From the NCBI GenBank assembly GCA_963848965.1, contig CAWKFG010000001.1:32001-96000 (forward strand): a stretch of 64,000 nucleotides of DNA, given 5' to 3'. The DNA is from an uncultured bacterium (GTDB lineage Bacteria; Babelota; Babeliae; Babelales; Babelaceae). Below are positions 9,930 to 60,900 of this stretch, piece by piece; position 1 is the stretch's first letter; each line of letters opens with the position of its first letter. A program made the position numbers and the translations under genes. The notes below the pieces were generated by a model. It saw only the letters and a list, made by a program, of their open reading frames with translations. It was not told where the DNA came from and ran no database searches.

Positions 9930-10712
9930 TTACTGCGGGATATTGTGCTGAATTGCCATAGCAATCTCATCAAGGGTATCATGAAATGGTATTATATGAT
10001 TATTAAATAAGTCGTTCTGCTCAGCGAGTGATAGAGAAGATTCAGTTAAAATATAATTACGCATATTCATATACATATCAAAAAGATTGTTCAAATCTGT
10101 ATTAAGATCTTTAAGTACGTCTTCGTCGTGAAGAATATGTTCGGTCGTAGCTTTATTAACTTTGAAAACGAGCTCATTTATGCTTTGTTTCCAGGCTTCT
10201 AGATCTATACGAAACGATAAGCTGTCGATAATTTTCTCAAGTGATGAAGAAGGGCCTCCTAGTGCATGATGAAGTTTAGTTGGCTTTGATGTTGTTGAAG
10301 TTTCTGCTGTAATTTCATCACTATCAAGCTTGAGTTGTTCTGCTTGTTCTAAAAGAGTTTGTAACGTATTGCTTGTGTATCCTTGTTGTATATGAGAGTC
10401 TACTGAATTTTCAAACGTAGATACTTTTTCCTTGAAAGAGCTAATGGATGTGCGTAGATTTTTTATTTTTCCTGACTCATTAGCTTTATCTCTAAACTCT
10501 TTAAGCTCTTGTATCATTTCAACTGGAAAAATCGCAAAGAAAGAAGAACGGTCTAAGCGTAAAAGATCAAGTAGATCATATGAAGTAGACTGTTTTGTCC
10601 TTTTAACAGGTGTCCTCGGAGTATTATCTGTGTCTCTATCTCTTTTATGTTGTTCCATTGCATGAGCAAGAGAACAGGATAAAAACATAAGTGCTATATA
10701 CTTTTTATACAT
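9930..10712 (-). CDS. Secreted hypothetical helical protein (candidate effector)
   Basis: Signal peptide ending AHA|MEQ; basic KR-x12-KRTK motif; helical C-terminal region. Confidence 0.7.
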   Translation of the reverse strand: MYKKYIALMFLSCSLAHAMEQHKRDRDTDNTPRTPVKRTKQSTSYDLLDLLRLDRSSFFAIFPVEMIQELKEFRDKANESGKIKNLRTSISSFKEKVSTFENSVDSHIQQGYTSNTLQTLLEQAEQLKLDSDEITAETSTTSKPTKLHHALGGPSSSLEKIIDSLSFRIDLEAWKQSINELVFKVNKATTEHILHDEDVLKDLNTDLNNLFDMYMNMRNYILTESSLSLAEQNDLFNNHIIPFHDTLDEIAMAIQHNIPQ

Positions 10713-10899
10713 AGTATTCCTTAAATAGTATATTTAATTTATATAATTTTATCATAATGTACAGAAAGAAAACCTACTTTCTCTCTTATGTCTAACCAAG
10801 CAGGGGTATCTTTACTAGAAGATGTTTGCTTAATTACTCGTTTGACATTCTTAAAAAGTATGATAAAAATAAGCTTTTTCCTATGAGAGAATTATATAT

Positions 10900-11170
10900 T
10901 ATTTTTTTATATGCTTCAATAGTAGGTTTTATATTAATTAATTTTTATATGTAATATTATTGGGCAAAGGCCTCTAGAATACGCGCTTTTTAGTATACGT
11001 ACCATAAAAAAGTTCAGGTAAAAATTCAATACTTTTGTTGTTTTTTTGAGTGTGTAGCCATCAAAGAGTAACCCAAAAAGAATAAACCTGCGCAGGATTT
11101 TTATAAAAAGCGAGGTTTTGCTATACTAAGTGAAGGGGCAACCCGTTTTCTTATGGAAAAAAGCCTTTAA
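10900..11170 (+). pseudogene. Decayed GNAT acetyltransferase remnant
   Basis: 11078-11170 reads KNKPAQDFYKKRGFAILSEGATRFLMEKSL* (GNAT N..A..FY.K.GF motif); upstream fragments SIVGFI and IGQRPLEYAL are separated by stops and frameshifts; 5' boundary uncertain. Confidence 0.65.
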
Positions 11171-11184
11171 ACTGAAAGTATTAT

Positions 11185-12456: not shown

Positions 12457-12557
12457 CACGAGGCAAAAATAGTTGTTTCTTGGTGTACTTTTTTGATTTT
12501 TAAAGTATACTATTTTTTAGTAGAATAATAGTATAAATAAATGATTAGGCCGATAAA

Positions 12558-13889
12558 ATGATAAAAAATCTTCTTTATAATGCTTTTTTGTTCGGTGCTT
12601 TTACACTATATCCAATGTATAAGCCTACTTATACGGCAGATTCTTTAAAAAATATCAGTATCCAGCAACTTGCTCAAAAGCTTGTCACTTGCGATCTCCA
12701 GAGTCTTTTAGAGAATAGTAATCTAAACCAACTTCCAGAAGGTCTTACAGAGCATCTTAAGAAAGCTCTTATAGATGATAATCTCCTTGTGTATGTAGAT
12801 GTTTTTCAAAAAGATCTGATTCCTGAAGTTAAACATATTCCTCTGCAGTATTATTGTGCTTCTGATGGAGCTGCATTTATTACAACTTCTAGCAAAGAAG
12901 ATGGGACAAGCAGCATACATATTTTTCCCTGGCCGTCATTAGAGCTGAAAATAACTTTTGACTGTCCTGAAAGTATTCTGTCATTGGTAGCCGTTCCACG
13001 CTCTGAACTCTTTTTTACTGCTCATGAAGAGAGTATACGCTTATGGAGTATAAAAGAAAAAAGGTGTATACAAGAATTTAAAAAAGAAAAGGGAGTTATT
13101 TGTGATTTAGTAACTAATGTTCAAGGAACTATGCTTCTTATGCGTTCAGTACTTGATAATTGCAATTATAGACTTATGAAACTCACTTCCTTTCCTTATA
13201 CCTTATCTGAATCTTGTACTCAAACTGAGGGAAAAACTAACCTTGACCTTGAATTAACTCCTGATGGTGAGTATGCAATTGAGTCTGAGGATGGGTATAT
13301 TTGCTTTCTTTCACTGATTACCGGTAAAGTTATAAAGATTGCGACTATAAAGGAGCATGTAAGTAGTATACATCTAAGTCCTGATGGCAGTTTTTTAATA
13401 GCTCTTTTAGGAACAACTTTACCTGCTGTCAACGGGTTTAGCCAAATAACTGACATGCAACCGTACCTGTTTGCTGTAAAAGATGGAGAAAAGATGGTCC
13501 CTGTTCATCTTACAGGGCATAATTGTATGGTAAAAGCAGTAAAAATAAGTCCTAATGGTAGGTATTTTGTTACAGGAGATGAAAAAGGTACTCTTCGTCT
13601 TTGGGATCTGTGTACGCTTGCTTCTATAGAGTTAAAAAATCATCCATTGACCTGTATAAACGATCTTCAATGGTCGCCAGATGGTAAGTTTCTCTTTGTA
13701 AAAGGAGATAAGGAAGGGACATATGTGTATAATTTTGAATCACTTATGAATACTGCAACTATAAAAGAGCTTGTCCTTATTGCAAAGTTAAAAAAATTTG
13801 GTATTCAAGTGCTCAGTAGTTCCTCCTATAGATCTATCTTTGAAAAATCTTCTTATCATGATAAACTTTCTGAGTATTTTAAGATTTGA
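12558..13889 (+). CDS. Secreted WD40-repeat protein with possible N-terminal SOCS/BC-box-like segment
   Basis: Signal peptide; GHNCMVKAVKISPNGRYFVTGDEKGTLRLWDL, WSPDGKFL, LSPDGSFL. Confidence 0.85.
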   Translation: MIKNLLYNAFLFGAFTLYPMYKPTYTADSLKNISIQQLAQKLVTCDLQSLLENSNLNQLPEGLTEHLKKALIDDNLLVYVDVFQKDLIPEVKHIPLQYYCASDGAAFITTSSKEDGTSSIHIFPWPSLELKITFDCPESILSLVAVPRSELFFTAHEESIRLWSIKEKRCIQEFKKEKGVICDLVTNVQGTMLLMRSVLDNCNYRLMKLTSFPYTLSESCTQTEGKTNLDLELTPDGEYAIESEDGYICFLSLITGKVIKIATIKEHVSSIHLSPDGSFLIALLGTTLPAVNGFSQITDMQPYLFAVKDGEKMVPVHLTGHNCMVKAVKISPNGRYFVTGDEKGTLRLWDLCTLASIELKNHPLTCINDLQWSPDGKFLFVKGDKEGTYVYNFESLMNTATIKELVLIAKLKKFGIQVLSSSSYRSIFEKSSYHDKLSEYFKI

Positions 13890-13914
13890 AAGAGCTACCC
13901 TAACAGCAGCTCTT
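13890..13914. terminator. Hairpin between convergent genes
   Basis: AAGAGCT...AGCTCTT inverted repeat. Confidence 0.45.
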
Positions 13915-13933
13915 AGATACTACGATAAGAATT

Positions 13934-14458
13934 TTATACAGCTTTTTCTATAAGAACTTTATAAGCAGGGTTTATCATTTGCATGATTTGAGTGGCTTTG
14001 CTTCTTTGTAACTCATTATCCTTTGGTTGCTTATCAGGATGAAAGCGGAATGTAAGAGCTCTATACCTTTCTAATAGAGCTTTTCTATTGAAGGCATCAT
14101 TAGGATGTAGTCCAAGAAGTGGAGCAGCAGTAGGAGCAAAATTTCTTGCAAATCCAAGCTGTTCATAAACATCTGCTCTTTCAGCTACAGGAACTTTATC
14201 ATCAAGAAGAATATGTTCATACACATTTTCCCACATACCAATGCCTTCGGCTCTTTTTTTTGGATTCTGCACAGTATAAGGTAAATGTTCTTTCTCTTGT
14301 TTGCCACCTTCTTGCTCTTGTCCTGAAGGAGTATAGCCTAGAGCAGGCTCTTCTTGAGGAGTTTCGGTAGAAACTAGCTCTTGTGGAACTGTTAACATTC
14401 CATAAAGAGGTATACTCAGAAGTACAAAACCTGCCAAAAGTACATAGTTGTTTTTCAT
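13934..14458 (-). CDS. Secreted protein with C-terminal J-domain (DnaJ-like)
   Basis: Signal peptide; YRALTFRFHPDK...MQMINPAYKVL. Confidence 0.85.
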   Translation of the reverse strand: MKNNYVLLAGFVLLSIPLYGMLTVPQELVSTETPQEEPALGYTPSGQEQEGGKQEKEHLPYTVQNPKKRAEGIGMWENVYEHILLDDKVPVAERADVYEQLGFARNFAPTAAPLLGLHPNDAFNRKALLERYRALTFRFHPDKQPKDNELQRSKATQIMQMINPAYKVLIEKAV

Positions 14459-14581
14459 GGAAAAGTCCTTTATTTTTAAATAAACTATTTTTTATTATAG
14501 TAATTTAAAAGGGCATGATTTTTCAAGAAATTTACTTATCGTGAGGAATTTCTGCAGCAGTAGTAAAAAACTATAAAGACC

Positions 14582-15418: not shown

Positions 15419-15432
15419 AGAATACCCTATAA

Positions 15433-16105: not shown

Positions 16106-16142
16106 TGTAGTCTCCTTATATAGTTATTTCTTTTCTACTCTT

Positions 16143-16173: not shown

Positions 16174-16234
16174 ATTATACAGCTTAGGAGGTATAAATTA
16201 CACAAGAGAAATCATTAAAAAGCCGACATTTACG

Positions 16235-16297: not shown

Positions 16298-16315
16298 GTT
16301 ACTAAGAAAGAATAG

Positions 16316-18126: not shown

Positions 18127-19032
18127 TTAAGAAAGTTCTTCAATAGAGGGAAGCAAGCGATCTTGTTGAACAAATGTTAGTGCTATGTGAGCTCCATATG
18201 TTAAAAGGAGCTGCACTATTTCGCTGTTTCCGCGTCTTATGGCATTAACCAGGGCAGATTTACCTGTGTTATTTAATAGAGTTGTATCTGCCCTATGTTG
18301 TAAAAGAATGCTAATAATCTCTTTGCGACCAACAAGTGTAGCGAGCATTAAAGCAGTAGAACCATGTTCGTTTTGAATGTTTGGAGAAGCTCCGTTAAGC
18401 AGTAAGAAACGTACTATATTCTCCTGATTGCAAAATACTGCATCCATAAGTGCTGTTGATCCTGTATTATCTTGTTTATTAACATATGCTCCTTGAGCAA
18501 TAAGTTGTGCTACAGTTTCAAACTTACCATGCCAGCAAGCGAGCATTAAAGCTGTTTGTTCGTGCTCATTTTGTTCATCTACATAAGCTCCTGCGTCAAT
18601 CAATGCCTTAATACAGTAAGCATTTCCCTGTACTGCTGCAAAATGTAATGCAGTATTGTTATTATAACCTCTTTTATGCACATCAGCTTTATTGCTTAAA
18701 AGAAAGAGAATAACAGTATAATGTCCTTGTGATGCAGCAAGCATGAGCGCAGTTTTTCCCTGCTCATCTGTTGTGTTAATATCAATATGTGGAAGAAGAA
18801 GTTGTGCTCTTTCTATATCGGCTTCTTTAACAGCCTGTAACCATTCTGCTTCAAGCATATAGGGAAGAAAATCTTGAGAGAGGGTAGAAAGAGGTTCCCC
18901 TTTGGTTTTCTTCATAAATTGTATCCGTTCTTCATCATGAAGCCTTTTTTTAGGCTGTGGCTTTTCCATACTATAAAGTACAAAACTAGCGCTTATAAAA
19001 GAGAGCGCTGTTATTATAGAAATAAATTTCAC
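18127..19032 (-). CDS. Secreted ankyrin-repeat protein (~6-7 repeats)
   Basis: Signal peptide; repeated GxTALMxA...LLxxGAxVN. Confidence 0.95.
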   Translation of the reverse strand: MKFISIITALSFISASFVLYSMEKPQPKKRLHDEERIQFMKKTKGEPLSTLSQDFLPYMLEAEWLQAVKEADIERAQLLLPHIDINTTDEQGKTALMLAASQGHYTVILFLLSNKADVHKRGYNNNTALHFAAVQGNAYCIKALIDAGAYVDEQNEHEQTALMLACWHGKFETVAQLIAQGAYVNKQDNTGSTALMDAVFCNQENIVRFLLLNGASPNIQNEHGSTALMLATLVGRKEIISILLQHRADTTLLNNTGKSALVNAIRRGNSEIVQLLLTYGAHIALTFVQQDRLLPSIEELS

Positions 19033-19202: not shown

Positions 19203-19832
19203 ATGAAAATAAAATTATTAATGACTTGCTTACTACCTGCTTATATGCTTTTTGGTTGTGATAATAAAGAGTTATATGAAGCGGTTAAGAATAGTGACCT
19301 TTATACCTTTAATACTATCTTGAATGCTGAAAAGGTTGTGCTGACACAACAAGAGAAAAGTGAGTTATTAGGATTTGCTCAAGAAATAGTTGCGAGAAGG
19401 AAAAACCAAGCAACTAGTATAACAAATGCTCTTGTTAATAGGCATACTCTTTTTGGAGCTGGCCTCTTATATACAGCTTTTGTTTGCAAAACTATGTTAT
19501 CTTCAAATTGGGTTGAGAATAACCTACGTGAGCGGTTGCAAAGAGTTAGGGGTCACTTAAAACCTCATCAAGAGGGTGACCACTACATCTTTGACATTGA
19601 GGGTGGAGATATGCGAAAAGGTGCTTTTACACCACAAAGATATGTTGATTTTACAGAAGAACAGGCATTACAAGATTTTTCTAATTTTAAAAAAAATTTA
19701 GGATTTGTACCTTGGCTTTTTGCAGGTATTGGTCTTTATCATCTTTATAAGGGTGTTATAGATACTAATGCTAAAAAACAGTATAACAACGCTTGTGCTA
19801 TTAAAATGGTTATTGAAAACTATCCAATATAA
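19203..19832 (+). CDS. Hypothetical membrane/secreted protein, paralog A of a tandem pair
   Basis: Signal peptide with possible lipobox LFG|C; two hydrophobic segments; similar to 19852..20469. Confidence 0.65.
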   Translation: MKIKLLMTCLLPAYMLFGCDNKELYEAVKNSDLYTFNTILNAEKVVLTQQEKSELLGFAQEIVARRKNQATSITNALVNRHTLFGAGLLYTAFVCKTMLSSNWVENNLRERLQRVRGHLKPHQEGDHYIFDIEGGDMRKGAFTPQRYVDFTEEQALQDFSNFKKNLGFVPWLFAGIGLYHLYKGVIDTNAKKQYNNACAIKMVIENYPI

Positions 19833-19851: not shown

Positions 19852-20469
19852 ATGAAGATACGATTGTTATACGTTTTTACTTTTACTTTTCCTCTTTACA
19901 GTGCTATCGACCAAACTTTACGTAATGCGGTAAAAAGTACCAACTTATATGCTTTAAACAATTATTTGCTAGCAAACAGGCCTCTTATTACTCAGGTAGA
20001 AAAATACGAGCTTTTAAAGCTTGCTCAAGAGAAGATAGTAAAACATAAGGGTCTAGCAGAAAGTAAGTTTAAACCGTTTTTTAATCGTGATACCTGGTCA
20101 GGAGCTGCGCTTTTAGCAGCAGCTATTGGACTTTTGAGCTTTGTCTATTCAGATAAAGTTGAAACAGACGTACAGCAAACACTAGGTAAAGCAGAAGCAA
20201 GCTGTTTACCTACAAGCTTTTCATTAGAAGTAACAGCGCAACGAGTAAAGGAGCATTTACAGACTGCTCAAACTACACTTACTGAGCGTTTGTCAAATAT
20301 ACGAGAAAGAGCTTTTCTTGCTCAAATGCTTTTATCGGCAGTTGGCTTGTGTAATCTGTATAAAGGCATAAAGAACAAAAGAGCATGGCAACGGTATCAT
20401 CATGCTGTTGCAGTTAAAGCTGCTATTGAGCACTATACTATAGGTGATAGAGAGCTTAAAATCAGCTAG
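19852..20469 (+). CDS. Hypothetical membrane/secreted protein, paralog B of a tandem pair
   Basis: Shares AVK.S/T.LY, TQ.EK.ELL..AQE, LYKG...A...Y..A.A.K..IE.Y with the upstream gene. Confidence 0.65.
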   Translation: MKIRLLYVFTFTFPLYSAIDQTLRNAVKSTNLYALNNYLLANRPLITQVEKYELLKLAQEKIVKHKGLAESKFKPFFNRDTWSGAALLAAAIGLLSFVYSDKVETDVQQTLGKAEASCLPTSFSLEVTAQRVKEHLQTAQTTLTERLSNIRERAFLAQMLLSAVGLCNLYKGIKNKRAWQRYHHAVAVKAAIEHYTIGDRELKIS

Positions 20470-24699: not shown

Positions 24700-27600
24700 A
24701 TGTCTAGCCTTCACATGGGCAAAGAACTTATCCGTCGTTCTTTTGGAAAAATAAAAGATATTGTTCCAGTTCCTAATTTAATAGAGATTCAATCTCGGTC
24801 ATTCAATGAGTTTGCACAGCTCGATTATTTACCATCAGAGCGACTGTCTATTGGATTAGAGAAAGTATTTAAGGATGTATTTCCTATCGATTATAATGAT
24901 AGGATGTCATTAGAATATGTAAGCTATGAATTAGGTCATTGGGCATGTACGTGCGGTAAAGTGACAGGAATTGTTAATCGCTATACATGGAGCTGCTCGT
25001 CTTGTAAAAAGTCCGATGTTTCGCGCCTTAATAACAATCTTGAATGTACCTTTTGCCATAAAAATACAGCACGCTATAAAACGTGCTCTAACTGCTTGTC
25101 CAGAGTCACTGTACAGTTACCGTTGACTCTGGATGAATGCCGATCAAGTGGTCAAACATTTGCTATGCCACTTAAGGTAAAAATGCAGCTTATTACCTGG
25201 GATGTAAGTCCTGAAGGTGCTAAGATTTTACGTGATGTGAAAGAACAGGATATCTTTTTTGCAGATATTCCTGTTATGGCCGATCTTCTATGAAGAGAAA
25301 TGGTCAGTTTAAACTCGGTAATTTAGGAACATTCTTAATTAATGGCGTTGATCGTGTTATTGTAAGTCAGCTCCATCGTTCTCCGGGTGTTGTATTTTCT
25401 CAAAGCAAAAAAGTTAAAGATGCTCGGGGTAAGCCATATTATTTAGCACGTATTATTCCAATGCGTGGTTCATGGCTTGATTTTGAATTTGATAGCAATG
25501 ATTACCTGTATGTTCGTATTGATAAAAAGAAAAAGTTGCTTGTAACAACATTTTTACAAGCATTGGGGGTACCTCGAGAACAAATTATACCATTCTTCTA
25601 TCGTTTTGATACTAGTACAAGTACAGAAAGGGTGAATTCTTATCAAACAATTGATGAGAGCCTTTTAGGAATACGTCTTGAAGCTGGTATGCTTCCAGGA
25701 TACAAAGATGAAGAATCACTTGTAGCAAGAAGGCTCACAAAGGAGCTTATTGCTCGCTTATTGAACGCGGGGATTGATAGAGTACTTTTGCGTAAAGCGA
25801 GTCTTATAAATAGGATATTTGGTACCGATGTGATAGATCCTGAGACAGGAGAGGTTCTTATTGAACAAGGGACTACACTGACCGAAGAGCATTATGAGCG
25901 CCTGAAAAAGTTTCCGAGCCTTCAGTTCCATCTTATTTCATCCTCCGGATATGTATTCCAGCCAACGATTCCACTTACCTTGAACCAAGATAAAGCATAT
26001 AGTGAAGACGATGCTCTTAAAGAAGTTCATGCTAAGATATGGCCCGGTGACAGCTCGTCACTCAAAGAGATTAAGGATCGTCTAGAAGGACTTTTCTTTA
26101 ACGCTCGTTTATATGATCTGACAAAAGTTGGTCGTATCCGTATGAACCGTAAATTAGGACTTTCTATAGCAGAAGAGATAACTACGCTTACGCGTGACGA
26201 TATTTTAGCTACTATTAAGTACTTAGTGAATTTGCGTGAGCGGGGTGAAGGTGAGCTTGATGATATTGATCATCTTGGTAATCGTCGTGTTCGTCTTGTA
26301 GGAGAGCTTCTTAATAACCAAATTTATGTAGGACTGTTGCGTATTGAGCGTATTGTGCGTGAGCGCTTTAGAATTCAAGAAACGCATGGTGCTTTAATGC
26401 CACAAGATTTTCTTAATGTAAAGCCACTCAATGCAGTACTGCGAGAATTCTTTGGTACCGGTCAGCTTTCACAATTTATGGATCAGACAAATCCGCTTTC
26501 TGAGATTGCACATAAGCGTCGTCTTTCTGCTCTTGGGCCAGGCGGTGTTATGAAAGATCGTGCAACGTACGAAATTCGTGACGTACATACGTCTCACTAT
26601 GGTCGTATTTGCCCTATTGAAACACCAGAAGGTCAAACCGTAGGTTTGATTTCTTCGCTTTCTACCTATGCATTGGTAAACGATCTCGGTTTCATAGAGA
26701 CAGCATATAGACCAGTTAATCAAGGCAAAATGCTTGATGAGGTAGTGTTTTTAGATGCGTTTGAAGAAGGAGATAAGTATCTTGCACAGGCAAATGCAGT
26801 TGATCCTGAAACGCAAGCTATTAAAGAGAACCAGGTATTTGCTCGTCATGAAGGAAACTTTTTATATGCAGAAAGCAAGAAGATCAACTATATTGACCTC
26901 TCGCCAAAGCAGCTAGTATCTGTTTCTACAGCACTTATCCCGTTCTTAGAGCATGATGACGCAACTCGTGCATTAATGGGTTCAAACATGCAACGACAAG
27001 CTGTTCCGCTTATCCGTATTCAGCCACCGCTTGTTGGTACTGGTATGGAAGGAGAGATTGCGCGTGCATCAGGAGCTACTGTTATTGCAAAACATGATGG
27101 TGTTGTTGAATATGTCTGACTCAGAGAAGATTGTAGTACGTGTTGATGAAAACAACTTCAAAAATACTGAAGATTGGATTTCTCAAGGAGTAGATACCTA
27201 TCCTTTACGTAAATTCCAGCGTTCTAGTTATAGTACCTGGATTCATCAATCACCTATTGTAAAACCAGGTGATACAGTAAAAGCTGGTGATATGTTAAGT
27301 AATGGTAGTGCGGTGTATAATGGTGAGCTTGCTTTAGGTTCAAACTTATTAATAGCCTTTATGCCATGGCATGGCTACAACTTTGAGGATGCTATTGTTC
27401 TTAATAAGCGCCTTGTTGCAGATGATGCATTAACGTCTGTTCATATTGATGAGTATGTCGTAGATGCTCGCGATACAAAACTTGGACCTGAAGAGATTAC
27501 ACGTGATATTCCAAATGTAAGCGAAGCTGCGCTTATAGGTCTTGATGAAGACGGTATTGTTCGTATAGGAACTCGGGTACGACCTGGAGATATTCTTGTA

Positions 27601-29026: not shown

Positions 29027-29034
<8 letters not shown>
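24700..29034 (+). CDS. rpoB: DNA-directed RNA polymerase beta subunit (split by probable sequencing indels near 25290 and 27117)
   Basis: Three consecutive ORFs carry [66 protein letters not shown] in order. Confidence 0.97.
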
Positions 29035-33079
<4,045 letters not shown>

Positions 33080-33089
<10 letters not shown>

Positions 33090-39432: not shown

Positions 39433-41208
39433 TTATTCTGTAGTTGTTTTTTCTGAAAGAGCTTGTGTGTTTTTTAAAAGTTTAGCAATTTCAGGAAGAT
39501 TAAGCTCATATGCTAAGTCAAGAGCTGTTTTTCCGAGGGTATTTTGAGCAGTCTTATCTGCTCCTAATGCAAGGAGTTCTTGTATGTACTTTGTATACCT
39601 GTGCATTACTGCCAGCATTAAAGGGGTTGTCCCTTTATCGTCACAAGGGGTATTAAGAGCATGTTGTAACGTAATAGTGTCGATTAAGAATTTTTTGGCA
39701 CAAACAGCTTTGTGAGATTTCCACTCTTTTTTTTGACACTCAGAAGAGCAATACTTGAATATATGGCACCGATCACATAATAAAAGTGGTTGAGAAGTAG
39801 CTTTACAATGAGCACATGCGTTAAAGTCTAGAGTTGGTTGAACTCGCTTTAAATCTTCTATTAGAGAACCATAGTGCGTGTCTTTAAATGCGTTTTTTTT
39901 GTCCATAAAGGTTAGATACCCATTTCTGATGACGCTACTAAATATAGCTTTCTCTTGAGTATGAGGTATATTTACCCGCGCGCCTTGTTCAAGAAGTAGT
40001 GCAATAAGGTCTTGAGGAATTTTTTTAGAGAGTGCATGGAATAGAGCAGTATGACCATTGTTGTCATGCTCATTAATATCGGCCTTACAGCTTGCCATAA
40101 GATTTAAGATCGGTATAAGTATGTCAAGACTATTAGCACAGATAGCCATCATTAAAGGTGTCTTTCCATTATCGTCATGTGCTTCTGTAATAAAGGGAAA
40201 ATGTAAGAGCAGCTCTTTTTTATTTCCTTTTATTAGATTACGAGTAAGAGCAAGCTTAAAGGCAGAGGATTTTTGTAGCTTGAAGAAAAAAAGTCCGAAT
40301 GTGTAGATATCAAAGGGCGCACCATGTTCTACAAGAGTACAGATAGTTTCTTCATCTTCATAAGGAACAGCAAAATTTAAGAGCAATCCATGCTTAGGAT
40401 AGTTGGCTGTAACGTTGGCTCCTGCTTCAACGAGTGCAGTTACTACTTTGCTATATTTACCTTGTATAGCAAGATGAAGTGCAGTGTATCCTTCCTTATT
40501 TACTGCATTAATATTTTCTTTAGATGCCTTAAGAATCATTTGTACTATCTCAAGATGCCCTTGAGCAGATGCTATAATAAGTGGCGTATTACCAAGTATA
40601 TTGTAGGTTAAAGGAGTAGCGCCTTTTTCAAGTAATTCCTTAACAATTGTGATATATCCTCCATGTGAGGCATGAGATAAACATGTTTCTCCGCCATGCA
40701 AAGAAGTAGTAACATTCGCTCCTAAAGAGAGGAGTAATTGTACTATTTTTAAAAAACCCTTTTGTACGGCTATAGTTAAAGCATTATCTCTTTGAGTACA
40801 TGCTTTTTGATTTTTGAAGTTGAAGTATTTAAGTACGAGACGTACAAGTGCTTCATTGCCACGTGTTACTGCATAAATAAGAGCAGAGCCATTATCTCGA
40901 GTTTCTTCATAAACAGGTGCCTTTGCTTCTAATAGAATACGAACAACTTCTATTTTTTGATTATCAATAGCCATTATTAGAGGAGTCATACCATTCTGAG
41001 GAGACTTTGTATTTATATCTGCTCCAGCATGTAAGAGCGCTTTAACTGTTGCAACTTCTCCATTACATGCTGCTATAAGAAGTTGCAAATTTTTTGCTTC
41101 TTGCACGGAAAGTGGCCGTATGGAATGATTTTTTTCCTTTTGCATACCATATGTTATAGAAAAGAAGGAAAGAAATAGAAGTGAATAGATACAGAGATAG
41201 TTATTCAT
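39433..41208 (-). CDS. Secreted ankyrin-repeat protein with MYND zinc finger
   Basis: Start re-assigned to MNNYL (41208); signal peptide; ~10 ankyrin repeats; CAHC...CDRC...YCSSECQKKEWKSHKAVC. Confidence 0.93.
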   Translation of the reverse strand: MNNYLCIYSLLFLSFFSITYGMQKEKNHSIRPLSVQEAKNLQLLIAACNGEVATVKALLHAGADINTKSPQNGMTPLIMAIDNQKIEVVRILLEAKAPVYEETRDNGSALIYAVTRGNEALVRLVLKYFNFKNQKACTQRDNALTIAVQKGFLKIVQLLLSLGANVTTSLHGGETCLSHASHGGYITIVKELLEKGATPLTYNILGNTPLIIASAQGHLEIVQMILKASKENINAVNKEGYTALHLAIQGKYSKVVTALVEAGANVTANYPKHGLLLNFAVPYEDEETICTLVEHGAPFDIYTFGLFFFKLQKSSAFKLALTRNLIKGNKKELLLHFPFITEAHDDNGKTPLMMAICANSLDILIPILNLMASCKADINEHDNNGHTALFHALSKKIPQDLIALLLEQGARVNIPHTQEKAIFSSVIRNGYLTFMDKKNAFKDTHYGSLIEDLKRVQPTLDFNACAHCKATSQPLLLCDRCHIFKYCSSECQKKEWKSHKAVCAKKFLIDTITLQHALNTPCDDKGTTPLMLAVMHRYTKYIQELLALGADKTAQNTLGKTALDLAYELNLPEIAKLLKNTQALSEKTTTE

Positions 41209-41368
41209 AAAAAGTCCTAGGTAAAAATACAAGAAGAAGTCTATTATTTTATTTATAATAAGCATAAATATGAGTAAAAAATTGTCAAGGATCCTCTCTT
41301 TCTTGGCGTTCTTTATAATTCTACGTATACTATAAGAGATAGTAAAAACTTTTTAGAGTAGAAACACA

Positions 41369-44251: not shown

Positions 44252-45901
44252 ATGATACTGTATTTATTTTTGGTAATTTTTAGTATAAGCGCTGTACAAG
44301 CAGAAGGAGCAAAACCTCATGTAAGTAAAGTTCCTTTTAAAAAGCTTTGTCCTCCTATTTTAGAAGCTAAAGGGACCTGTTCTGGTTGTACATTGCGGCA
44401 GTGGGCAAAGAAGATAGCTACATTGAAAGAGCGTCCTGCAGAGATATCTTCACTTCCTACCAAAGATACGTACCAGACCTCTATTTTAACACTTCAAGAG
44501 CTATTAGATTCAATTGAAACATGTGTACATACTATTGAGAATCAGTGTAAAGATACAGGTTGTTGGCTGAATAGAAAAACGCTTCAAGGAAAAGCGCCAG
44601 AAATCTTTAACATAAGGCGAGCATTCTTTCCTTTAAAAGAAGCAGGTAAAAATTTTATCTTTAAGCCTTATGCACAGCGACTTATTGTTCCGCCGGGAAG
44701 TACTGTTATCTTTTTTGGCGATCTTCATGGATCTGTTCATTCGCTTGTTCGTACGTTGCTCAAATTACATCGTGATGGCATTATATCTGATACATTTAAG
44801 ATACAATGGGCAAATACCTATATGGTATTTTTAGGAGATTATGTAGATCGTGGCATCTATGGTACAGAAGTTATTTATACTCTTATGCAGTTGAAAAATG
44901 CTAATCCTGATCATGTACTTATGGTACGTGGTAATCATGAAGAATATGGTTTAGGGCTTGCATTTGCTCGTAAATATATGAATAGAGAACCAAAAGAAGA
45001 TGCACCAAGCTTTCTTGATGAGCTTGATCGTAAATTTGGTATCTCCTGTAAAGATGAGACAATTATTTACCGCTTTTACGATATACTGCCTGTTGTACTG
45101 TATCTTGGTTGTCAAGATCAAGAGCATGTGAACTTTATCCAATGTTGCCATGGCGGTCTTGAGATAGGATATGATCCACAAAGCTTTTTACAAGCAGGTA
45201 AAACGGTGAACTATGATCTTATAGAAGTGCTTTGGCGTAAAAAACATTTTTATAGAAAGCTTACAGAACAACAACAGCATATGATTAAAAAGAATTTTGA
45301 TATTCCAACGCTCTGTAGCGATATAGTGAATCTTGTTCCTCGTGGGGCTTTTTATACAAGAACAGCTACTGGTCAGTCTTTTGGATTTGGCTTTATGTGG
45401 AATGATTTTTATACAGATCCACAAAAAGAGATAGGTCCTCGTAATTGGTCTAAAAATACGAGAATAAATACATTTGGTGGCTGGGTGTATGGTAAAGAGC
45501 TTTCTCAGGCATTGCTTTCATGGGGTAACTCAAAGACGTCAAGACTGCATGCTATTTTACGTGCTCATCAGCATAATAATGAAACGGGCGGTCCTATGCT
45601 GAATCTCCTTTGCTGTAATAAGGGGATAGTAAATGTGTGGGGCGAGAATATGGTTTATACGCTTGTTTCATCGCCAGATGCAAAACTTGAAGAGACAGGA
45701 GAACGCTGCTTTACGTATGATTCTTATTGTATGCTTACTACAGCACGCTCATTTAACGAATGGAAGTTTTCTCACTACTTTCAAGATGGCTCTGTTGCAC
45801 GAAGAAAATGGCAGAAAGTTCCTGTAAGATTCGGATCAATAGCGGCTCCTTCTATTACTAGTGCTCAAAGATCTATGCAACTTGATGCTGCTGTGCAGTA
45901 A
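44252..45901 (+). CDS. Secreted PPP-family (calcineurin-like) Ser/Thr phosphatase
   Basis: Signal peptide; GDLHG, GDYVDRG, RGNHE, CHGG, FMWND, RAHQ. Confidence 0.9.
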   Translation: MILYLFLVIFSISAVQAEGAKPHVSKVPFKKLCPPILEAKGTCSGCTLRQWAKKIATLKERPAEISSLPTKDTYQTSILTLQELLDSIETCVHTIENQCKDTGCWLNRKTLQGKAPEIFNIRRAFFPLKEAGKNFIFKPYAQRLIVPPGSTVIFFGDLHGSVHSLVRTLLKLHRDGIISDTFKIQWANTYMVFLGDYVDRGIYGTEVIYTLMQLKNANPDHVLMVRGNHEEYGLGLAFARKYMNREPKEDAPSFLDELDRKFGISCKDETIIYRFYDILPVVLYLGCQDQEHVNFIQCCHGGLEIGYDPQSFLQAGKTVNYDLIEVLWRKKHFYRKLTEQQQHMIKKNFDIPTLCSDIVNLVPRGAFYTRTATGQSFGFGFMWNDFYTDPQKEIGPRNWSKNTRINTFGGWVYGKELSQALLSWGNSKTSRLHAILRAHQHNNETGGPMLNLLCCNKGIVNVWGENMVYTLVSSPDAKLEETGERCFTYDSYCMLTTARSFNEWKFSHYFQDGSVARRKWQKVPVRFGSIAAPSITSAQRSMQLDAAVQ

Positions 45902-45912
45902 GCGTTCTTGAA

Positions 45913-46038
45913 GTGCAAGAAGAAGGAGAGAAAAAAGAGTATATTTGCAGTGAATGTGATAAGGCCTTTGCTTGTTCTGATACATTGGCACAGCATATAC
46001 GTACTCATACAAGAGAAAAGATACCAAAATTTTTATAA
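45913..46038 (+). pseudogene. Orphan single C2H2 zinc-finger ORF (41 aa), not in the ORF track
   Basis: VQEEGEKKEYICSECDKAFACSDTLAQHIRTHTREKIPKFL*; full Y-x-C-x2-C-x3-F-x5-L-x2-H-x3-H consensus plus an HTREK linker. Confidence 0.8.
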
Positions 46039-46218
46039 TATTATAAAATAATAAAAGGGCACTTTCTTGCTCGCTTTCTTTAACTATCACAACATAATTA
46101 ATCTTATTTGTATTGTATTGTTGACAAAATATAACTAATGCATAAGCTTTAGTATAATAAGATATATGTATCAATTCATACTTTAATAATAAGAATATTT
46201 TTAAAATTAAGTGAAATT

Positions 46219-47064
46219 ATGAATAAATTTATAGTGCTTATATGGTGTAGCATAATAGTTAATGTTTATGGAATGGGATACGATTTAGAAGTACAAAAAG
46301 ATGCGGTAAGTAATCAACAGCTAGGTTATATGTGCGGGTGTTGTGCTTTAAATTTTAGGGAAAAGAAAGATTTAGAATCGCATTATGCTTTGTTCCATGA
46401 AGAAGATAAAGAAAGTACAGTACAAGAGGATAGTGAGACCGAAGAAGTATATGTAACAGATACTGTCGTTGAACCTTGTGAACAACCAGACAATAATAAT
46501 GGTTCTGACCAGAATAATTTAGAGACTTCTAGAGGTACTTCATCTTTATTATTACTGGAAAGAGCGGTAACAAGATCACATAAAGCGGTTCAAGACATAC
46601 AAAAGCAAAAGAACTTTACTAGTAAAGCATGTGAAAAAAGAGTTAAAAAAGCAGTTCGAAAAAGGAAGGCTCCTAGCAAGTCTCAAAAACAGAAGGTGCG
46701 AGTTGGCGTTAATTTAACCGATAAGATAACAGCGGAAAATGTAGAGTATATAACGCTATCAAACGAGCAGGACAATGGTCAAGAGCAGGGTCTTTATTTT
46801 ATTGAAAGTGAAGAATCTTTTGCATATGAAGATTCAGATGTTGAGATTTTGACAGAGAACTTGCCACCAGAAAAGAAAAAAAAAGTATTGTTATATGAGT
46901 GTGATACATGTCAAAAAACATTTGTTGATCTGAGTAACTTAAAAGCCCACGAGCGTACTCATGAAAAACGACAGGCAGTCGCCTGTAAAGCTTGTAAAAG
47001 AACTTTTGCCGCGCAAATATATTTAGATAAGCATCGTTGTTCAAAAGTTAGTAATGTATGCTAG
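46219..47064 (+). CDS. Secreted C2H2 zinc-finger protein (candidate nuclear effector)
   Basis: Signal peptide; fingers CGCCALNFREKKDLESHYALFH, CDTCQKTFVDLSNLKAHERTH, CKACKRTFAAQIYLDKHRC; basic clusters KRVKKAVRKRK and PPEKKKKV. Confidence 0.85.
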   Translation: MNKFIVLIWCSIIVNVYGMGYDLEVQKDAVSNQQLGYMCGCCALNFREKKDLESHYALFHEEDKESTVQEDSETEEVYVTDTVVEPCEQPDNNNGSDQNNLETSRGTSSLLLLERAVTRSHKAVQDIQKQKNFTSKACEKRVKKAVRKRKAPSKSQKQKVRVGVNLTDKITAENVEYITLSNEQDNGQEQGLYFIESEESFAYEDSDVEILTENLPPEKKKKVLLYECDTCQKTFVDLSNLKAHERTHEKRQAVACKACKRTFAAQIYLDKHRCSKVSNVC

Positions 47065-56683: not shown

Positions 56684-56815
56684 AGTTGTTATAGTTATTG
56701 TTGAGCGTAACTCTGTCTATACTACCGTTTTTTATGATTTTTGGCAAAGAACTTTTGGCAATTAAGATTCAAAATTAAAAGAAGCAGGTTTTCAATCTTG
56801 CTTGGTGCGTAAAGG

Positions 56816-56836
56816 AGGGAGCACAATGTGCTCCCT
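56816..56836 (-). terminator. Terminator hairpin after ankyrin gene
   Basis: AGGGAGCACA-A-TGTGCTCCCT. Confidence 0.65.
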
Positions 56837-56851
56837 TTGAGTATAGTAGAG

Positions 56852-57724
56852 TTATTTTTTATCTATGTTCATAAGAAATTTGATCATGCCAAACTTGTTG
56901 TTCCCTATTGCTTGTATAAGACATTTTTGCATAAGTGCTGGCCTTATATCAGTGCTATCGCAAGGAGTATGGCTCAGAAGCATAAGGGCAATCTTTGTGT
57001 TCCCTAACTTAAATGCTAACTCAAAGCAACTAAGACCTGCTTTGTCTGTAAGGTATCCAAGATAGGGATTAAGTTGGAGTAAAGTTTTAACTACTTTCGT
57101 TTTATTGCTAAGAATCGCAAGATGTAAAGGAGTATTGCCTGCATCATCTTTTATAGAAAGCGCTATACCTTCTTGAGCAAGAGTAATGATTTCATTGCAA
57201 TTAGATGAGTTTACTGCGTTAAAAAGACGTTCTCTAAGTTGCAACCATTGAGCAATGAAAGGAATACTCCTCCTTTGTGCAGTTTCTAAAGGGCTAAGTC
57301 CAAATTTACTCCATTTGGATGACCAGTCTGCACCGTGGTTAAGTAATAAGTAAATGAGCTTTTTATTGTTATGAATAGCTGCAGCGTCTAAAGCAGACAT
57401 AGAATCTAATTGTCTTCTATAGTTAACCTGTACATAGGGCTGTAAAAGTAGAAACTCTACTACTGCTAGAGCGCGGCCTCCTGTCAGACAAGCATTAAGG
57501 AGTGCACCATGAATAGCTTTTAAGTGTTCATCATTGTGTATGTCAAGTTGTCCTAAACATTTTTGTACCTTTTCAAGATTAGCTTCAGAACCGGCAAACA
57601 TAATGAGTTCTACTAGGTTAGTAGGTTGTACTACTTCAATATATCCTGTAGTATGCATAAAGGCTGTACAAGTGCCTGCTATACTACATAGTGAAGAGAG
57701 GGCTAAGAAGATTATTTTATACAT
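56852..57724 (-). CDS. Secreted ankyrin-repeat protein
   Basis: Signal peptide; SALDAAA, GNTPLHLAI, GLSCFELA repeats. Confidence 0.9.
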   Translation of the reverse strand: MYKIIFLALSSLCSIAGTCTAFMHTTGYIEVVQPTNLVELIMFAGSEANLEKVQKCLGQLDIHNDEHLKAIHGALLNACLTGGRALAVVEFLLLQPYVQVNYRRQLDSMSALDAAAIHNNKKLIYLLLNHGADWSSKWSKFGLSPLETAQRRSIPFIAQWLQLRERLFNAVNSSNCNEIITLAQEGIALSIKDDAGNTPLHLAILSNKTKVVKTLLQLNPYLGYLTDKAGLSCFELAFKLGNTKIALMLLSHTPCDSTDIRPALMQKCLIQAIGNNKFGMIKFLMNIDKK

Positions 57725-57952
57725 AAAAGACCTTTCATTAAATAATTTAATATTACTATTTATAATAATTGTTACCCTGACTTTGTCAATAACTAATTAT
57801 TTTTGCTGTTTTTTAAATCTTTAAAAGCATACGCTTGCTTGACAAGTTGAATCATAGATTTATAATGTTAAATATCAAATACAAACTGTATAATAAATCA
57901 GAGCACTTGCGAGTAAAAATATACCAGTTTTTACTTTTCCTAAGGAGTATCT

Positions 57953-60900
57953 ATGAATCGTGCACTCTTACTTACTTTAAGTGCATTTTTTGCTTTACAT
58001 TCTTATACCTATGCTATGAAAAGGGCTCCTGAGCCTAAGATGAAAGTGGAAGCTGCTAAAAAGTCTAAAGGTGACTGGAGAGCACTTCTTATGAGCGCTG
58101 CTGCAAAAGGAAATATAAATATCTTGCAGGCGCTTGCTAGAAAGAAGATTGATTTTAACACAAAAGATGCAACTGGCTATAGCCCATTAATGCATGCAAT
58201 TATCAACGGTCATAAAGATGCCGTAGTATGGCTTGTAAAAATGAACGCAAATGTTAATGTGCAAGCAGGCGGGCTAAGTGCTTTAATGTTAGCGATAATT
58301 CATAATCATAAAGACATTATAACTTTTTTAATTGAAGCAAGGGCTCATATAAACGTTCACGATGCTATCGGTTGGACTCCTTTAGTGTATGCAGTAAGAG
58401 CAGGTCATAAAGAAGTTATTTGCTATTTATTAGCTAAAGGAGCTGATCCTCTTGTGTGTGACAGAGCAGGTTGGACACTTCTTATGCATGCAGCATTTGA
58501 AGGTCATAAAGAGATAATTGAACTACTTATTCAACAGCGCGTTGCTGTTAACATACATGATTCTGCTGGTGTCAATGCTCTTATGATTGCTGCAAAACAG
58601 GGTCGTAAAGATGCTGTTGAACGATTGCTTGTACATGGAGCCAAAAGTAATAGCCAGGATAGTGCAGGAATGACTGCTTTAATGTATGCTGTACAAGGCG
58701 ATCCATTTCAAGAAATAGATAGTGCTACAGTAGTAGAGAATTTTTATGAAGCTATGGAGGTAACAGGTGAAAAGCCTCTTATATCTGCTGAACAAAGGAC
58801 TACTCCTTTTATAAAACGAGGAGATCATGAAGCTGTTATAGAACTTCTCCTTAAATGTGGCGCTCAAGTTCAGCTACGTGATAAAAAAAGTCGTACTGCT
58901 CTTATGCTTGCAGCAGAGGCTGGCAATAAAGCTGCAATTGAACTATTGCTCTCTTATAAAGCGTCCGTGAACGATAAAGATGCAGATGGTATGACTGCTT
59001 TAAACTATGCTCAAAAAAATGGTTATGAAGAGCTAGTACGCATTCTTTTGACACATGAAAATCAAGCAGCAGAGTCGATTGATGCTGCTCAATTACTTAA
59101 AAAAATGAAAACAGAAGCTGAGCAAGGTGTTAAGAAGCTTGTTATGGGTAAGGAAAATCCACAAGCTAGGCTTAATGCTACGTTATTACTTGTGGCGCAA
59201 CAAGGAAAGATTGATGTTATAGAAGATCTACTTAATAAAAAAGCAGACATTAATGTACCTGATGATAAAGGCCGTACGCCGCTTATGCTTGCTCTTGCAG
59301 CAAATCATAAAGATGCTGTAGCTCTTCTTATAAAAAAAGGAGCAAACGTACAGCTACAAGATGTAAAAGGTAACACTTCTTTAATGTATGCTGTAGCACA
59401 ATCCAATAGAGAAACTATTAGTGCACTCCTTGAGGCAGGTGCAGATAGTAATGTGCAAAATACCTTAGGAGAAAGTGCTTTAAAGATTGCTCTTGTAAGT
59501 AAAAATAAAGATATCATAGAGATGCTCCTTAAGAAGGCTACTTTTGTTGATATTCAAGATACGAAAGGAAGAACTCCTTTAATGACTGCAGCTCAATACA
59601 ATACCCTTGATGGTATTGACCTGTTACTTCAAAAAGGCGCAGACGTAAATGCACAAGCTCAAGGTGGTATGACTCCATTATTATTTGCAGCTCAACAAGG
59701 GCATTTAGAAGCAGTAAAAAAGCTTGTAAGTGCAGGTGCTTACGTAAACGTAAAAAACTATAGAGGAGCAACAGCTCTTGTTTATGCTATGACTGGTGGA
59801 CACAAAGGGATAGTAGAATTTTTACTTACCTGTGGAGCAGACGTAAATATTATTTTTAAAGATGTGTCTACAAACGCAGAAGGTACTAGTATTCTTCGTT
59901 CTGAAGGAATTACTCCCCTTATTTATGCTTGCCAGCTTGGTAATAAAAACTTAGTAGAGCTTTTTCTTGCAAGAAGAGCCTTTGTTAATGCTCAAGATGC
60001 TCGAGGAAATACTGCACTTATAGAGGCAGTGAAGCAAGGAGATAAAGAGATTGTAGATCTTCTTCTTAAGTATAATGCTCATGTTAATGCACGCAATAAT
60101 GAAGGAAGAACGTCACTCATGTTTGCTGCAGATAAAGGACATCAAGAGATAGCGTTAACTCTTTTAGAGAAAGGTGCATTTGTTAATGCACAGGATAATG
60201 ATGGTTGTACTGCCTTGGTACGAGCAGCGAATAATGGGCATCATGCAGTAGTATATCTGTTAATATATTATAGAGCAGATATTCGTTGTGGTATTACTGC
60301 TCAAGGGGATACTGCTTTAATACTTGCAGCCAGAAATGGACACACATCTGTTGTATCGTTATTGCTTTCGTATGAAGATTCAGGAACTACCTATGTTAAC
60401 ACCTGTAATAAACAGGGAGTTGCTGCTTTAGCGTATGCTCTAGAGAAACAACACAAAGATATAGTTAAACTTTTGTTAGCAGCACATGCAGATGTTGCTG
60501 TTAAAGATGCAGCAGGAGCGACTCCCTTAACACTTGCAGTGATAAAAGGTGATGAAGAGCTTGTTAGCCTCTGTTTACAAGCAAATCCTCATAAACAGCA
60601 TAGTCTTAATATAGCGTTAATTGTAGCAGCTAGGGTAGGCAACGTTGCTCTTGCACAATGGCTTAAAGAGCAGGGTGCTCACGTTAATCACAAAGATAGT
60701 ACAGGAAGACCTTTATTAATGAGTGCAGCTTTTGCTGGTAGTTCCGGAGCAGTAACTATTCTCCTTAACTTAGAAGCTGACATAAATGCTACTGATGTTG
60801 ATGGTAATACTGCTTTAATGGTAGCCGCAGCTAAAGGGCATACAGATGTACTTGCTCTCCTTCTTAAACGTAATGCAGATGTAAAAGTTCGTAACAAAAG

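Follow-up and report, generated by a model that had tools for sequence, protein, structure and literature searches.

Why should unrelated proteins of one bacterium carry a methionine (Met) exactly where their signal peptides are predicted to end? The question is raised by a 64,000-nt stretch of DNA, here called the window, from an uncultured member of the Babelaceae (phylum Babelota; assembly GCA_963848965.1, contig CAWKFG010000001.1, positions 32,001 to 96,000, G000:C1:32001-96000 in our numbering). An initial annotation of this DNA had pointed to seven such proteins, most with eukaryote-like domains, and had proposed that cleavage before Met leaves either a host-like, N-degron-safe N-terminus or a mark for a second export step. 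We find that the Met signature is real, strong, class-specific and apparently undescribed, and that several readings of its mechanism, including both of those proposed, are compatible with the data. The reading that we prefer, at a probability of roughly 40%, is that signal peptidase I sites follow a "Met rule" throughout the lineage, but only in host-directed accessory proteins, Met providing a selected mature N-terminus for these proteins and often being a retained start codon.

Signal peptide junctions in the window

Translation of the 54 window open reading frames (ORFs) of at least 100 aa reproduced all seven junctions. Pfam agreed with the domains that the initial annotation had named in the proteins at 12558 (WD40), 18127 and 57953 (ankyrin), 39433..41265 (ankyrin plus MYND) and 46219 (C2H2). 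Its J-domain label for the protein at 13934 stands less firmly, the DnaJ match being present at 26.3 bits, under the cut-off of 27.8, and ORF 9930..10712 has no Pfam family in the scan of window proteins. The junctions and three exported proteins that serve as counter-examples are as follows, a slash marking the predicted cut.

10659..10712, minus strand: signal-peptide codons of ORF 9930..10712 (MYKKYIALMFLSCSLAHA), AAGGA 6 nt upstream of ATG
10656..10658, minus strand: ATG for the +1 Met of ORF 9930..10712, SLAHA/MEQ, residue 19
12558..12614, plus strand: signal-peptide codons of WD40 protein 12558..13889 (MIKNLLYNAFLFGAFTLYP), Pfam WD40
12615..12617, plus strand: ATG for the +1 Met of WD40 protein 12558..13889, FTLYP/MYK, residue 20
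14399..14458, minus strand: signal-peptide codons of ORF 13934..14458 (MKNNYVLLAGFVLLSIPLYG), weak DnaJ match
14396..14398, minus strand: ATG for the +1 Met of ORF 13934..14458, IPLYG/MLT, residue 21
18970..19032, minus strand: signal-peptide codons of ankyrin protein 18127..19032 (MKFISIITALSFISASFVLYS), GTG start, Pfam ankyrin
18967..18969, minus strand: ATG for the +1 Met of ankyrin protein 18127..19032, FVLYS/MEK, residue 22
41146..41208, minus strand: signal-peptide codons of ankyrin-MYND protein 39433..41265 (MNNYLCIYSLLFLSFFSITYG), read from the ATG at 41208
41143..41145, minus strand: ATG for the +1 Met of ankyrin-MYND protein 39433..41265, SITYG/MQK, residue 22 from 41208
46219..46272, plus strand: signal-peptide codons of C2H2 zinc-finger protein 46219..47064 (MNKFIVLIWCSIIVNVYG), Pfam C2H2
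46273..46275, plus strand: ATG for the +1 Met of C2H2 protein 46219..47064, VNVYG/MGY, residue 19
57953..58015, plus strand: signal-peptide codons of the 1078-aa ankyrin protein 57953..61189 (MNRALLLTLSAFFALHSYTYA), AAGGAG upstream
58016..58018, plus strand: ATG for the +1 Met of ankyrin protein 57953..61189, SYTYA/MKR, residue 22
3..1367, plus strand: counter-example, WD40 protein with a signal peptide without Met, TVNA/GGDN
56852..57724, minus strand: near counter-example, ankyrin protein with Met at residue 23 after Phe, CTAF/MHT
7959..9266, plus strand: exported clostripain-family peptidase without Met, THTAA/DWT

The start of the ankyrin-MYND protein is ambiguous (41265, 41232 or 41208), and read from 41208 its n-region has no Lys or Arg. 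The proteins that had been set apart as lacking Met at the junction do lack it (3..1367 and 56852, and those at 2959, 7959, 19852, 36536, 44252 and 61202).

Genome-wide enrichment at the predicted cleavage site

Is this a property of seven proteins or of the genome? The assembly comprises 1,726,235 bases in 5 contigs at ~37% G+C. Taking ORFs of at least 100 aa and removing overlaps greedily gave 1390 genes covering 86% of the DNA. Signal peptides were called where no acidic residue precedes a run of at least nine uncharged residues with a mean Kyte-Doolittle hydropathy of at least 1.7 and the first charged residue falls by position 40-45. The strict version of this heuristic (643 N-termini) demanded a Lys or Arg in the n-region, and the relaxed one (778 N-termini) did not. 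Genes and signal peptides are thus our own heuristic calls, which also let in membrane proteins, transporters included, and a few cytosolic ones; MurC, MurA, EF-Ts and DJ-1 were among the false positives. A self-trained weight matrix for cleavage sites that ignored +1, fitted by expectation maximization, drifted into the hydrophobic core and was dropped.

Among the 643 strict N-termini, Met occurs 48, 59, 56, 55 and 35 times at positions 19 to 23, while every other position from 2 to 60 has between 4 and 23; the profile of the remaining 747 proteins is flat, with no peak. The excess is far larger than chance would give. We aligned 316 proteins on a Met at positions 17-27 and left its neighbors unconditioned. 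Position -1 is then Ala (30%), Ser (21%), Gly (21%), Thr (6%) or Cys (5%), 83% in all, and position -3 is Leu (32%), Ile (12%), Thr (10%), Ser (10%), Val (9%) or Ala (8%), 81% in all. The flanking positions are also skewed, with Tyr (25%), Phe (14%), Leu (10%) and Gln (9%) at -2 and Glu (43%), Lys (10%) and Gln (10%) at +2. The -3/-1 pattern is the canonical signal peptidase I context and predicts a cut directly before Met.

The same excess appears when no cleavage model is used. The residue preceding the first charge is Met in 184 of 778 relaxed N-termini, 13.3 times its proteome frequency, and the next-best residue reaches only 1.9 times, as does Gln. As a working definition, we called a junction where Met follows Ala, Gly, Ser, Cys, Thr or Pro and a charged residue lies within the next four. 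Such junctions are found in 297/778 signal-peptide-like N-termini, or ~21% of the 1390 genes, with Met at residues 19-23 in 228/297; 200 kb of Escherichia coli K-12 passed through the same pipeline gave 3/58. After Met, the predicted mature proteins continue mostly with Glu, Gln or Lys and a polar linker rich in Glu, Lys, Ser, Pro and Gln.

The Tyr or His that the initial annotation had included at -2 fared differently. Tyr is indeed the commonest -2 residue of junction proteins (83/297, versus 3.7% in the proteome), but it is not specific to them, as SLYG/T at 2959 and PLYS/A at 19852 illustrate. Leaders without Met also carry it in the window (2959-3969, 19852-20469 and 61202-63436) and genome-wide, so the Leu-Tyr-[Gly/Ser/Ala] ending characterizes the signal peptides of this organism in general.

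Proteins that carry the junction

Which exported proteins have the junction? We surveyed Pfam families over 800 kb of the genome plus the window (864 kb), counting exported proteins wholly within a tile (n=270). Scans covered 77 + 119 proteins in addition to those of the window; 8 proteins over 1300 aa, 51 of 55 members of the ankyrin cluster (redundant) and the short ORF 45836..46174 were left out. Carriers are for the most part eukaryote-like scaffolds and orphans, with some enzymes. Those with a family include ankyrin, C2H2 (11/11), WD40, MYND, RING and LRR proteins, a MutS-domain-V protein, a thioredoxin, two thioredoxin-reductase-like proteins, an ADP-ribosylglycohydrolase, a DSP phosphatase, a CPT-like kinase, hydrolases and a DUF6829 protein, and ~40 junction proteins have no Pfam family at all. 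Among the proteins without the junction are two secretins, TamB, DsbD, FtsH, two DegP-like proteases, a Prc-like S41 peptidase, two M23 peptidases, NamZ, an amidase, GH3, two solute-binding proteins, MacB and BatD.

The split between eukaryote-like and housekeeping proteins that the initial annotation had sketched is strong: 64/77 proteins with eukaryote-like domains (ankyrin 48/55, C2H2 11/11, WD40 3/7, MYND/RING/LRR/J 2/4) have the junction and 0/20 envelope housekeeping proteins do (Fisher p=2e-12), the latter class taking in secretins, TamB, DsbD, DegP, Prc, M23, amidase, NamZ, solute-binding proteins and others. With ankyrin proteins excluded, the counts are 16/22 versus 0/20 (p=5e-7). 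Both p-values overstate the case, since the classes were drawn after the Pfam names were known and paralogues are not independent; shared ancestry inflates the class split as well as the paralogue statistics given below.

The junction is nevertheless not confined to one paralogous family, judging by mature sequences clustered by BLASTP (E<1e-6, 874 clusters). A Met-junction member is present in 128 of the 356 clusters that hold an exported protein and in 85 of 266 exported singletons. Of the 171 members of the ankyrin cluster, 131 passed as exported, and the Met is present in 115 (strict) or 106 (refined); these are undercounts, because many of the 40 "non-exported" members show a leader followed by Met and lack only the basic n-region. 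Junction carriers are accessory genes by their conservation: although 21% of genes are carriers, just 17 of the 723 pairs of reciprocal best hits to sampled relatives involve one, and the window proteins at 9930 and 13934 each have orthologues in 0/5 genomes of the same family.

Several carriers deserve description in their own right. Tandem genes for eukaryote-type C2H2 zinc-finger arrays lie at C1:236931-241863 (L070:931-5863) and C1:233097-235518 (L069:17097-19518), and each gene in these clusters has a signal peptide and a Met junction. The mature N-terminus of the ankyrin protein 57953..61189, MKRAPEPKMKVEAAKKSKG (window 58016-58075), resembles a bipartite nuclear localization signal (NLS). 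It is one of 9 among 23 mature N-termini of the form Met-Lys/Arg-Lys/Arg with a second basic cluster 8-12 residues on, against 292 of 5410 control basic pairs (5.4%), which suggests that some exported proteins are aimed at the host nucleus. A leader followed by Met is also found in two thioredoxin-reductase-like flavoproteins, one fused to thioredoxin, and in a thioredoxin (L066:527-1645, L082:11111-12607, L100:3478-4287); outside the cytoplasm, an enzyme that depends on NADPH would have to draw its cofactor from the host. Four MutS domain V proteins have signal-peptide-like N-termini (L078:8295-11330, L080:9305-12358, L068:1471-3528, L096:8998-10998), two of them with domain III as well and one with the Met junction; exported MutS-like ATPases are unexpected.

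Persistence of Met and constraint at +2

Is the Met kept? Conservation was judged on paralogues and public homologues, orthologues being few (17 junction pairs). The best paralogue of a junction protein itself has the junction in 21/33 cases below 30% identity, 49/69 at 30-40%, 32/46 at 40-50%, 19/25 at 50-70% and 10/13 above 70%; the same bins for exported proteins without Met give 7/48, 10/57, 11/40, 4/28 and 2/11. Pooled below 40% identity, the contrast is 70/102 versus 17/105, and in these pairs the 12 residues on each side are only ~18% identical when anchored on Met.

The neighboring residue is biased as well. With +2 left unconditioned, Asp, Glu, Asn or Gln occupies it in 184/269 (68%), against 25% in the linker at +7 to +16. 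Bulky hydrophobic residues fall to 15/269 (23% in the linker). Small residues at +2 permit removal of Met by methionine aminopeptidase (MetAP), and these MetAP-permissive residues are found in 27/269, versus 35% in the linker. Glu makes up 6% of position 2 in those proteins of this genome that have no signal peptide. The retention of Met in diverged paralogues and the bias beside it argue that Met and its neighbor are under constraint and not merely left over. Recent shuffling of a DNA cassette of promoter plus leader was considered and rejected: similarity of the 5' DNA (-120 to +150) across clusters was detected in 22 pairs among 643 genes.

Distribution in relatives

LepB homologues are present in 81/81 genomes searched in the phylum, which represent one order and 14 families. 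We passed 22 relatives, sampled at 38-200 kb each, through the same pipeline and counted junctions over exported proteins; the counts are noisy, since samples are small and may fall in effector islands or housekeeping regions. Family f1 gave 20/77 (G048), 12/37 (G079), 5/34 (G059) and 1/25 (G076); f2, 13/45 (G001), 9/52 (G003) and 6/36 (G075); f3, 9/44 (G005), 6/37 (G018), 7/28 (G020), 5/47 (G027) and 11/51 (G049); and f10, 10/28 (G071) and 1/46 (G041). Other families gave 2/19 (f4), 3/49 (f5), 5/56 (f6), 0/21 (f7), 3/44 (f8), 2/28 (f11), 2/22 (f12) and 2/33 (f14), and relatives without the rule (G010, G041, G047, G069 and G076) pool to 7/174. The Met rule is thus widespread but patchy across the phylum. 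At +2, the pooled relatives (n=134) have Asp 34, Glu 26, Val 10, Lys 8, Ala 7 and Gln 6; Met is the common element, and the residue that follows varies by lineage.

An exported GNAT acetyltransferase (C4:739310-739843) was tried as a candidate N-terminal modifier and discarded. Its matches are weak and generic, occur in 25/80 genomes and are missing from rule-bearing G048, G001 and G071, so they are not co-distributed with the rule.

Possible roles of the exposed Met

What would such a Met do? We propose that Sec carries these proteins over the inner membrane and that the single LepB cleaves them, so that mature proteins would start with Met-Glu, Met-Gln or Met-Lys, and that they would leave the cell through type II machinery, for which secretins and ATPases are present. 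The Met would often be the original start codon of a gene that gained an export leader upstream, although a point change could also create it, and it would then be kept by selection, the mature N-terminus mattering after export. Its most likely role would be to give proteins active in the cytosol or nucleus of the host a retained-Met, non-destabilizing, host-like N-terminus. Envelope proteins never face the N-terminal surveillance of the host, which may be why they can begin with Lys, Arg, Glu or Asp. Put broadly, and as tentatively as the preferred reading itself, the exposed Met may be a functional code for the host-directed proteins of Dependentiae and a bacterial counterpart of the PEXEL and RxLR motifs, some 300 effectors per genome or about a fifth of genes, read by the export machinery or by host surveillance, with +2 tuned to keep the Met.

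Besides the post hoc classes and shared ancestry mentioned above, several observations weigh against this proposal. The signal peptides and cut sites on which it stands are our heuristic predictions. Host N-terminal acetylation by NatB is co-translational, which makes acetylation mimicry doubtful for a protein delivered post-translationally. Ala, Ser, Thr, Gly and Val N-termini are also stabilizing, so N-degron safety does not call for the avoidance of small residues at +2. In G048, the closest relative sampled, Met is often followed by Val or Ile, and Met-Ile would count as a Met-hydrophobic degron. Several families export ankyrin proteins without Met (G040 5/56, G041 1/46, G047 3/49), and the rule is therefore not required for the lifestyle. 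Within this genome, some likely effectors lack the junction (three MutS-V, two WD40 and two DSP proteins, PLD, macro and RPE65), as do many probably secreted enzymes (clostripain, PLD, macro and two of the three DSP phosphatases).

Could the exposed Met instead be read inside the bacterium? A second-step sorting signal, in which Met-Glu/Gln/Lys and the polar linker mark periplasmic cargo for the outer membrane (by type II secretion or vesicles) or for the host, is possible but on balance unlikely. The Bacteroidetes acidic lipoprotein export signal offers an analogue, as do the PEXEL and RxLR motifs. Such a signal would draw equally on the class split of 64/77 versus 0/20, the persistence of Met and the constraint at +2; the logos show an extended Met-Glu-Lys/Pro-Glu preference, and envelope proteins bound to stay in the periplasm are without Met. 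Type II components are present, and type II is the only secretion system reported in Babela, as far as the available text of that paper goes (PMC4378268). Beyond Met, however, the motif differs by lineage, with Glu here, Asp in several relatives and Val or Ile in G048, which fits a requirement for Met alone better than a motif read by a receptor. To our knowledge, no linear signal is known for type II substrates, and the likely secreted enzymes and the ankyrin proteins of other families that lack Met count against a sorting signal too.

Origin of the Met

Where does the Met come from? It may originate as a retained start codon, and the DUF6829 gene (C4:442017-443435; L085:2017-3438) is a case in point. 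No copy was detected in the 80 other genomes of the phylum searched. Its closest public homologues, at 50-53% identity, have a leader followed by Met in five cases (P0001, P0002, P0004, P0005 and P0006); the recorded start of P0003 is the aligned Met, and the leader of P0007 is not followed by Met. Leader and Met are also found in a second clade (P0008 and P0009). Distant homologues from black-yeast fungi and other bacteria are leaderless and start within ~10-25 residues of the Met column, consistent with the addition of a leader in front of a former start codon. Given its absence from the 80 relatives and its kin in fungi and other bacteria, the gene probably arrived by horizontal transfer and gained its leader afterwards. 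In this genome it retains the ancestral Met at an internal position, and 17 residues further upstream a new Met-Glu-Lys stands at its own junction.

Might the Met then be only a relic, the functionless initiator of once-cytosolic or horizontally acquired genes to which leaders were added? We regard this as improbable. It would account for the DUF6829 Met lying about where leaderless homologues start, and for P0003 starting there; it explains naturally why ancient envelope proteins are without Met while accessory cytosolic-type domains have it; and gain of signal peptides through acquired N-terminal regions is documented in Enterobacterales, in the accessible text of PMC5952966. Yet a neutral Met would hardly be kept in ~69% of paralogue pairs below 40% identity whose flanks are ~18% identical, nor be followed by Glu, Gln, Asn or Asp in 68% when Glu stands at position 2 of only 6% of leaderless proteins. 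The new junction of the DUF6829 copy, upstream of its ancestral Met, speaks against it as well. Three tandem DSP-phosphatase paralogues have leaders homologous at the DNA level and differ at +1, ATG versus AAG, so the Met can be gained or lost inside an existing leader, and in TrxB-like proteins the Met lies ~30 residues ahead of the GxGxxG motif.

Leader type and translation

Are the leaders ordinary signal peptides, and are they translated? By their sequence features, junction leaders have the makings of Sec-type signal peptides: an n-region with Lys or Arg in 260/297 (absent in 37/297), a core rich in Leu, Ile and Phe, a c-region rich in Ser and Thr (logos) that ends in [Leu/Ile/Val/Thr]-[Tyr/Phe/x]-[Ala/Gly/Ser], the -1/-3 residues described above, and a signal peptidase I gene in the genome, LepB, in single copy (C1:323677-324552; TIGR02227, 117.9 bits summed). 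They do not resemble lipoprotein leaders, +1 being Met and Cys standing at -1 in 21/297; separate lipobox-like N-termini exist, such as LFG/C at 19203 in the window. An RRx-hydrophobic Tat pattern occurs in 3/297, and the Met follows the hydrophobic core and does not precede it as in type IV pilin-like (class III) leaders. The machinery for exit comprises two secretins and two ATPases of the T2SSE family (type II secretion/type IV pilus type).

Signal-peptide-like N-termini without Lys or Arg in the n-region number 149/778 (MNNYLCIYSLLF and MILYLFLVIFSISAVQA, at 41146-41208 and 44252-44302 of the window, are examples). The Babela paper, in its available text, terms some leaders "somewhat atypical" (PMC4378268).

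The internal ATG might alternatively be a second start, each gene yielding an exported and a leaderless cytosolic form; we hold this to be highly improbable. Its appeal is that a leaderless isoform would have its first residue precisely where Met lies, that the codons after it are A-rich (GAA, CAA, AAA), as is common after real starts, and that the sequence upstream is U-rich and probably unstructured. But a Shine-Dalgarno core 4-mer lies within the 15 nt upstream of the first start in 204/297 genes and upstream of the internal Met in 17/297, in an organism that clearly uses the motif; at -18 to -4 the figures are 69% and 1.7%, versus 12.7% of 7334 control in-frame ATGs. Positions -5 to -2 show no enrichment of the Gly, Glu, Lys or Arg that could encode a Shine-Dalgarno sequence, true starts are followed at position 2 by Lys, Asn or Ile and not by Glu, and ankyrin, C2H2 or NLS-bearing proteins have no evident use inside the bacterium. 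That Met is the only real start of cytosolic proteins, the "signal peptide" being an untranslated AT-rich leader, is barely credible: T-rich sequence does read in frame as hydrophobic residues and the 149/778 leaders without a basic n-region would suit it, but Shine-Dalgarno sequences precede the first ATG, Met clusters at residues 19-23 behind canonical -3/-1 residues, every frame is open and has a start codon, and independent public gene calls for homologues in other assemblies include the leader (P0001, P0002, P0004-P0009). The placement of Shine-Dalgarno sequences before the first ATG, and not the internal Met, thus indicates that the signal peptide is translated. Hence none of the three outcomes that the initial annotation had named as fatal to its idea was observed: the cut is predicted exactly before Met, +1 Met is 13-fold above background against 3/58 in E. 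coli, and Met is very unlikely to be the real start.

Other features of the window

Two further sets of genes in the window were noted. The adjacent genes 19203-19832 and 19852-20469 encode similar small proteins, neither with a Pfam family; the leader of the first is lipobox-like (LFG/C) and that of its neighbor type I-like (PLYS/A). At 24700-33089, rpoB is spread over three frames (24700-25293, 25290-27119 and 27031-29034), which match TIGR02013 positions 3-75, 125-682 and 681-1237, respectively, and rpoC is in two pieces (29009-32233 and 32613-33089) ~380 nt apart. Indels in the assembly could account for the splits, or the frames of these essential genes may really have changed.

Comparison with known systems

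Our literature search on signal peptides, effectors and cleavage sites of Dependentiae, TM6, Babela and Babeliales found no description of a Met rule. If the rule holds, one residue becomes a simple sequence criterion by which the host-directed secretome can be recognized throughout a phylum of protist parasites that is mostly uncultured. Here it would pick ~300 proteins, exported C2H2 zinc-finger arrays and NLS-like ankyrin proteins among them. The rule would also make testable how proteins secreted by Sec and type II machinery, without injection systems, reach and survive the eukaryotic cytosol, and it would show how a leader placed ahead of the former start can convert cytosolic or eukaryote-derived genes into genes for exported proteins.

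The PEXEL motif of Plasmodium and the RxLR-dEER motif of oomycetes stand shortly after the signal peptide and mark hundreds of unrelated host-directed proteins. The resemblance lies in a short conserved feature past the signal peptide of unrelated proteins, with an acidic or polar stretch after it. Unlike the Met, those motifs belong to eukaryotic pathogens, lie some 15-30 residues past the cut and, for PEXEL, have a dedicated protease, while here the feature is +1 itself; the logos contain no RxLxE or RxLR, only preferences for Glu, Lys, Pro, Ser and Gln at +2 to +11. Host N-end-rule degradation reportedly acts on the Sec-secreted Listeria proteins LLO and ActA (work attributed to Schnupf et al., 2007, and Moors et al., 1999). 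The logic of our preferred reading is the same, in that a residue bared by signal-peptide removal can set half-life in the host cytosol, but those are single proteins with destabilizing N-termini, whereas we propose a proteome-wide choice of one residue.

The remaining comparisons draw on the available portions of published papers. Chromulinavorax destructans (PMC6561590) and Babela massiliensis (PMC4378268) are described as having export signals in 44% of genes and many ankyrin proteins, with signal peptides on 78% of those in Chromulinavorax and 79/126 in Babela, and Sec plus type II secretion is given as the export route. Our genome fits these descriptions, with export signals in about half of its genes and a 171-member ankyrin family, and shares the phylum-level biology of signal-peptide-bearing ankyrin and orphan proteins. 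In the available text of the two papers, a Met at the cleavage site is not mentioned; "methionine" occurs in neither and "cleavage" does not occur in the Babela paper. The Enterobacterales study (PMC5952966) likewise has cytosolic proteins becoming exported through a new N-terminal segment, but its accessible text gives no retained Met and no class-wide rule, and the word "methionine" is absent from it.

The closest parallel is the Q-rule of Bacteroidetes, in which Gln at +1 of signal peptidase I substrates is cyclized to pyroglutamate (PMC5837995, PMC10653852). Both are lineage-specific, near-invariant +1 residues at type I cleavage sites, and the role proposed for the Q-rule is protection or stability of the N-terminus. 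The residue here is Met, not Gln; the Q-rule, as described in the available text, covers most signal peptidase I substrates, periplasmic ones included, while the Met rule skips the envelope (0/20). The Q-rule has a dedicated modifier, glutaminyl cyclase, and none is known for the Met rule (glutaminyl cyclase was not searched for here). Methionine, TM6 and Dependentiae do not occur in the part of PMC5837995 that was available. If correct, the Met rule would join the Q-rule as the only other lineage-wide rule for the +1 residue of signal peptidase I sites, and it would be the first limited to one class of cargo.

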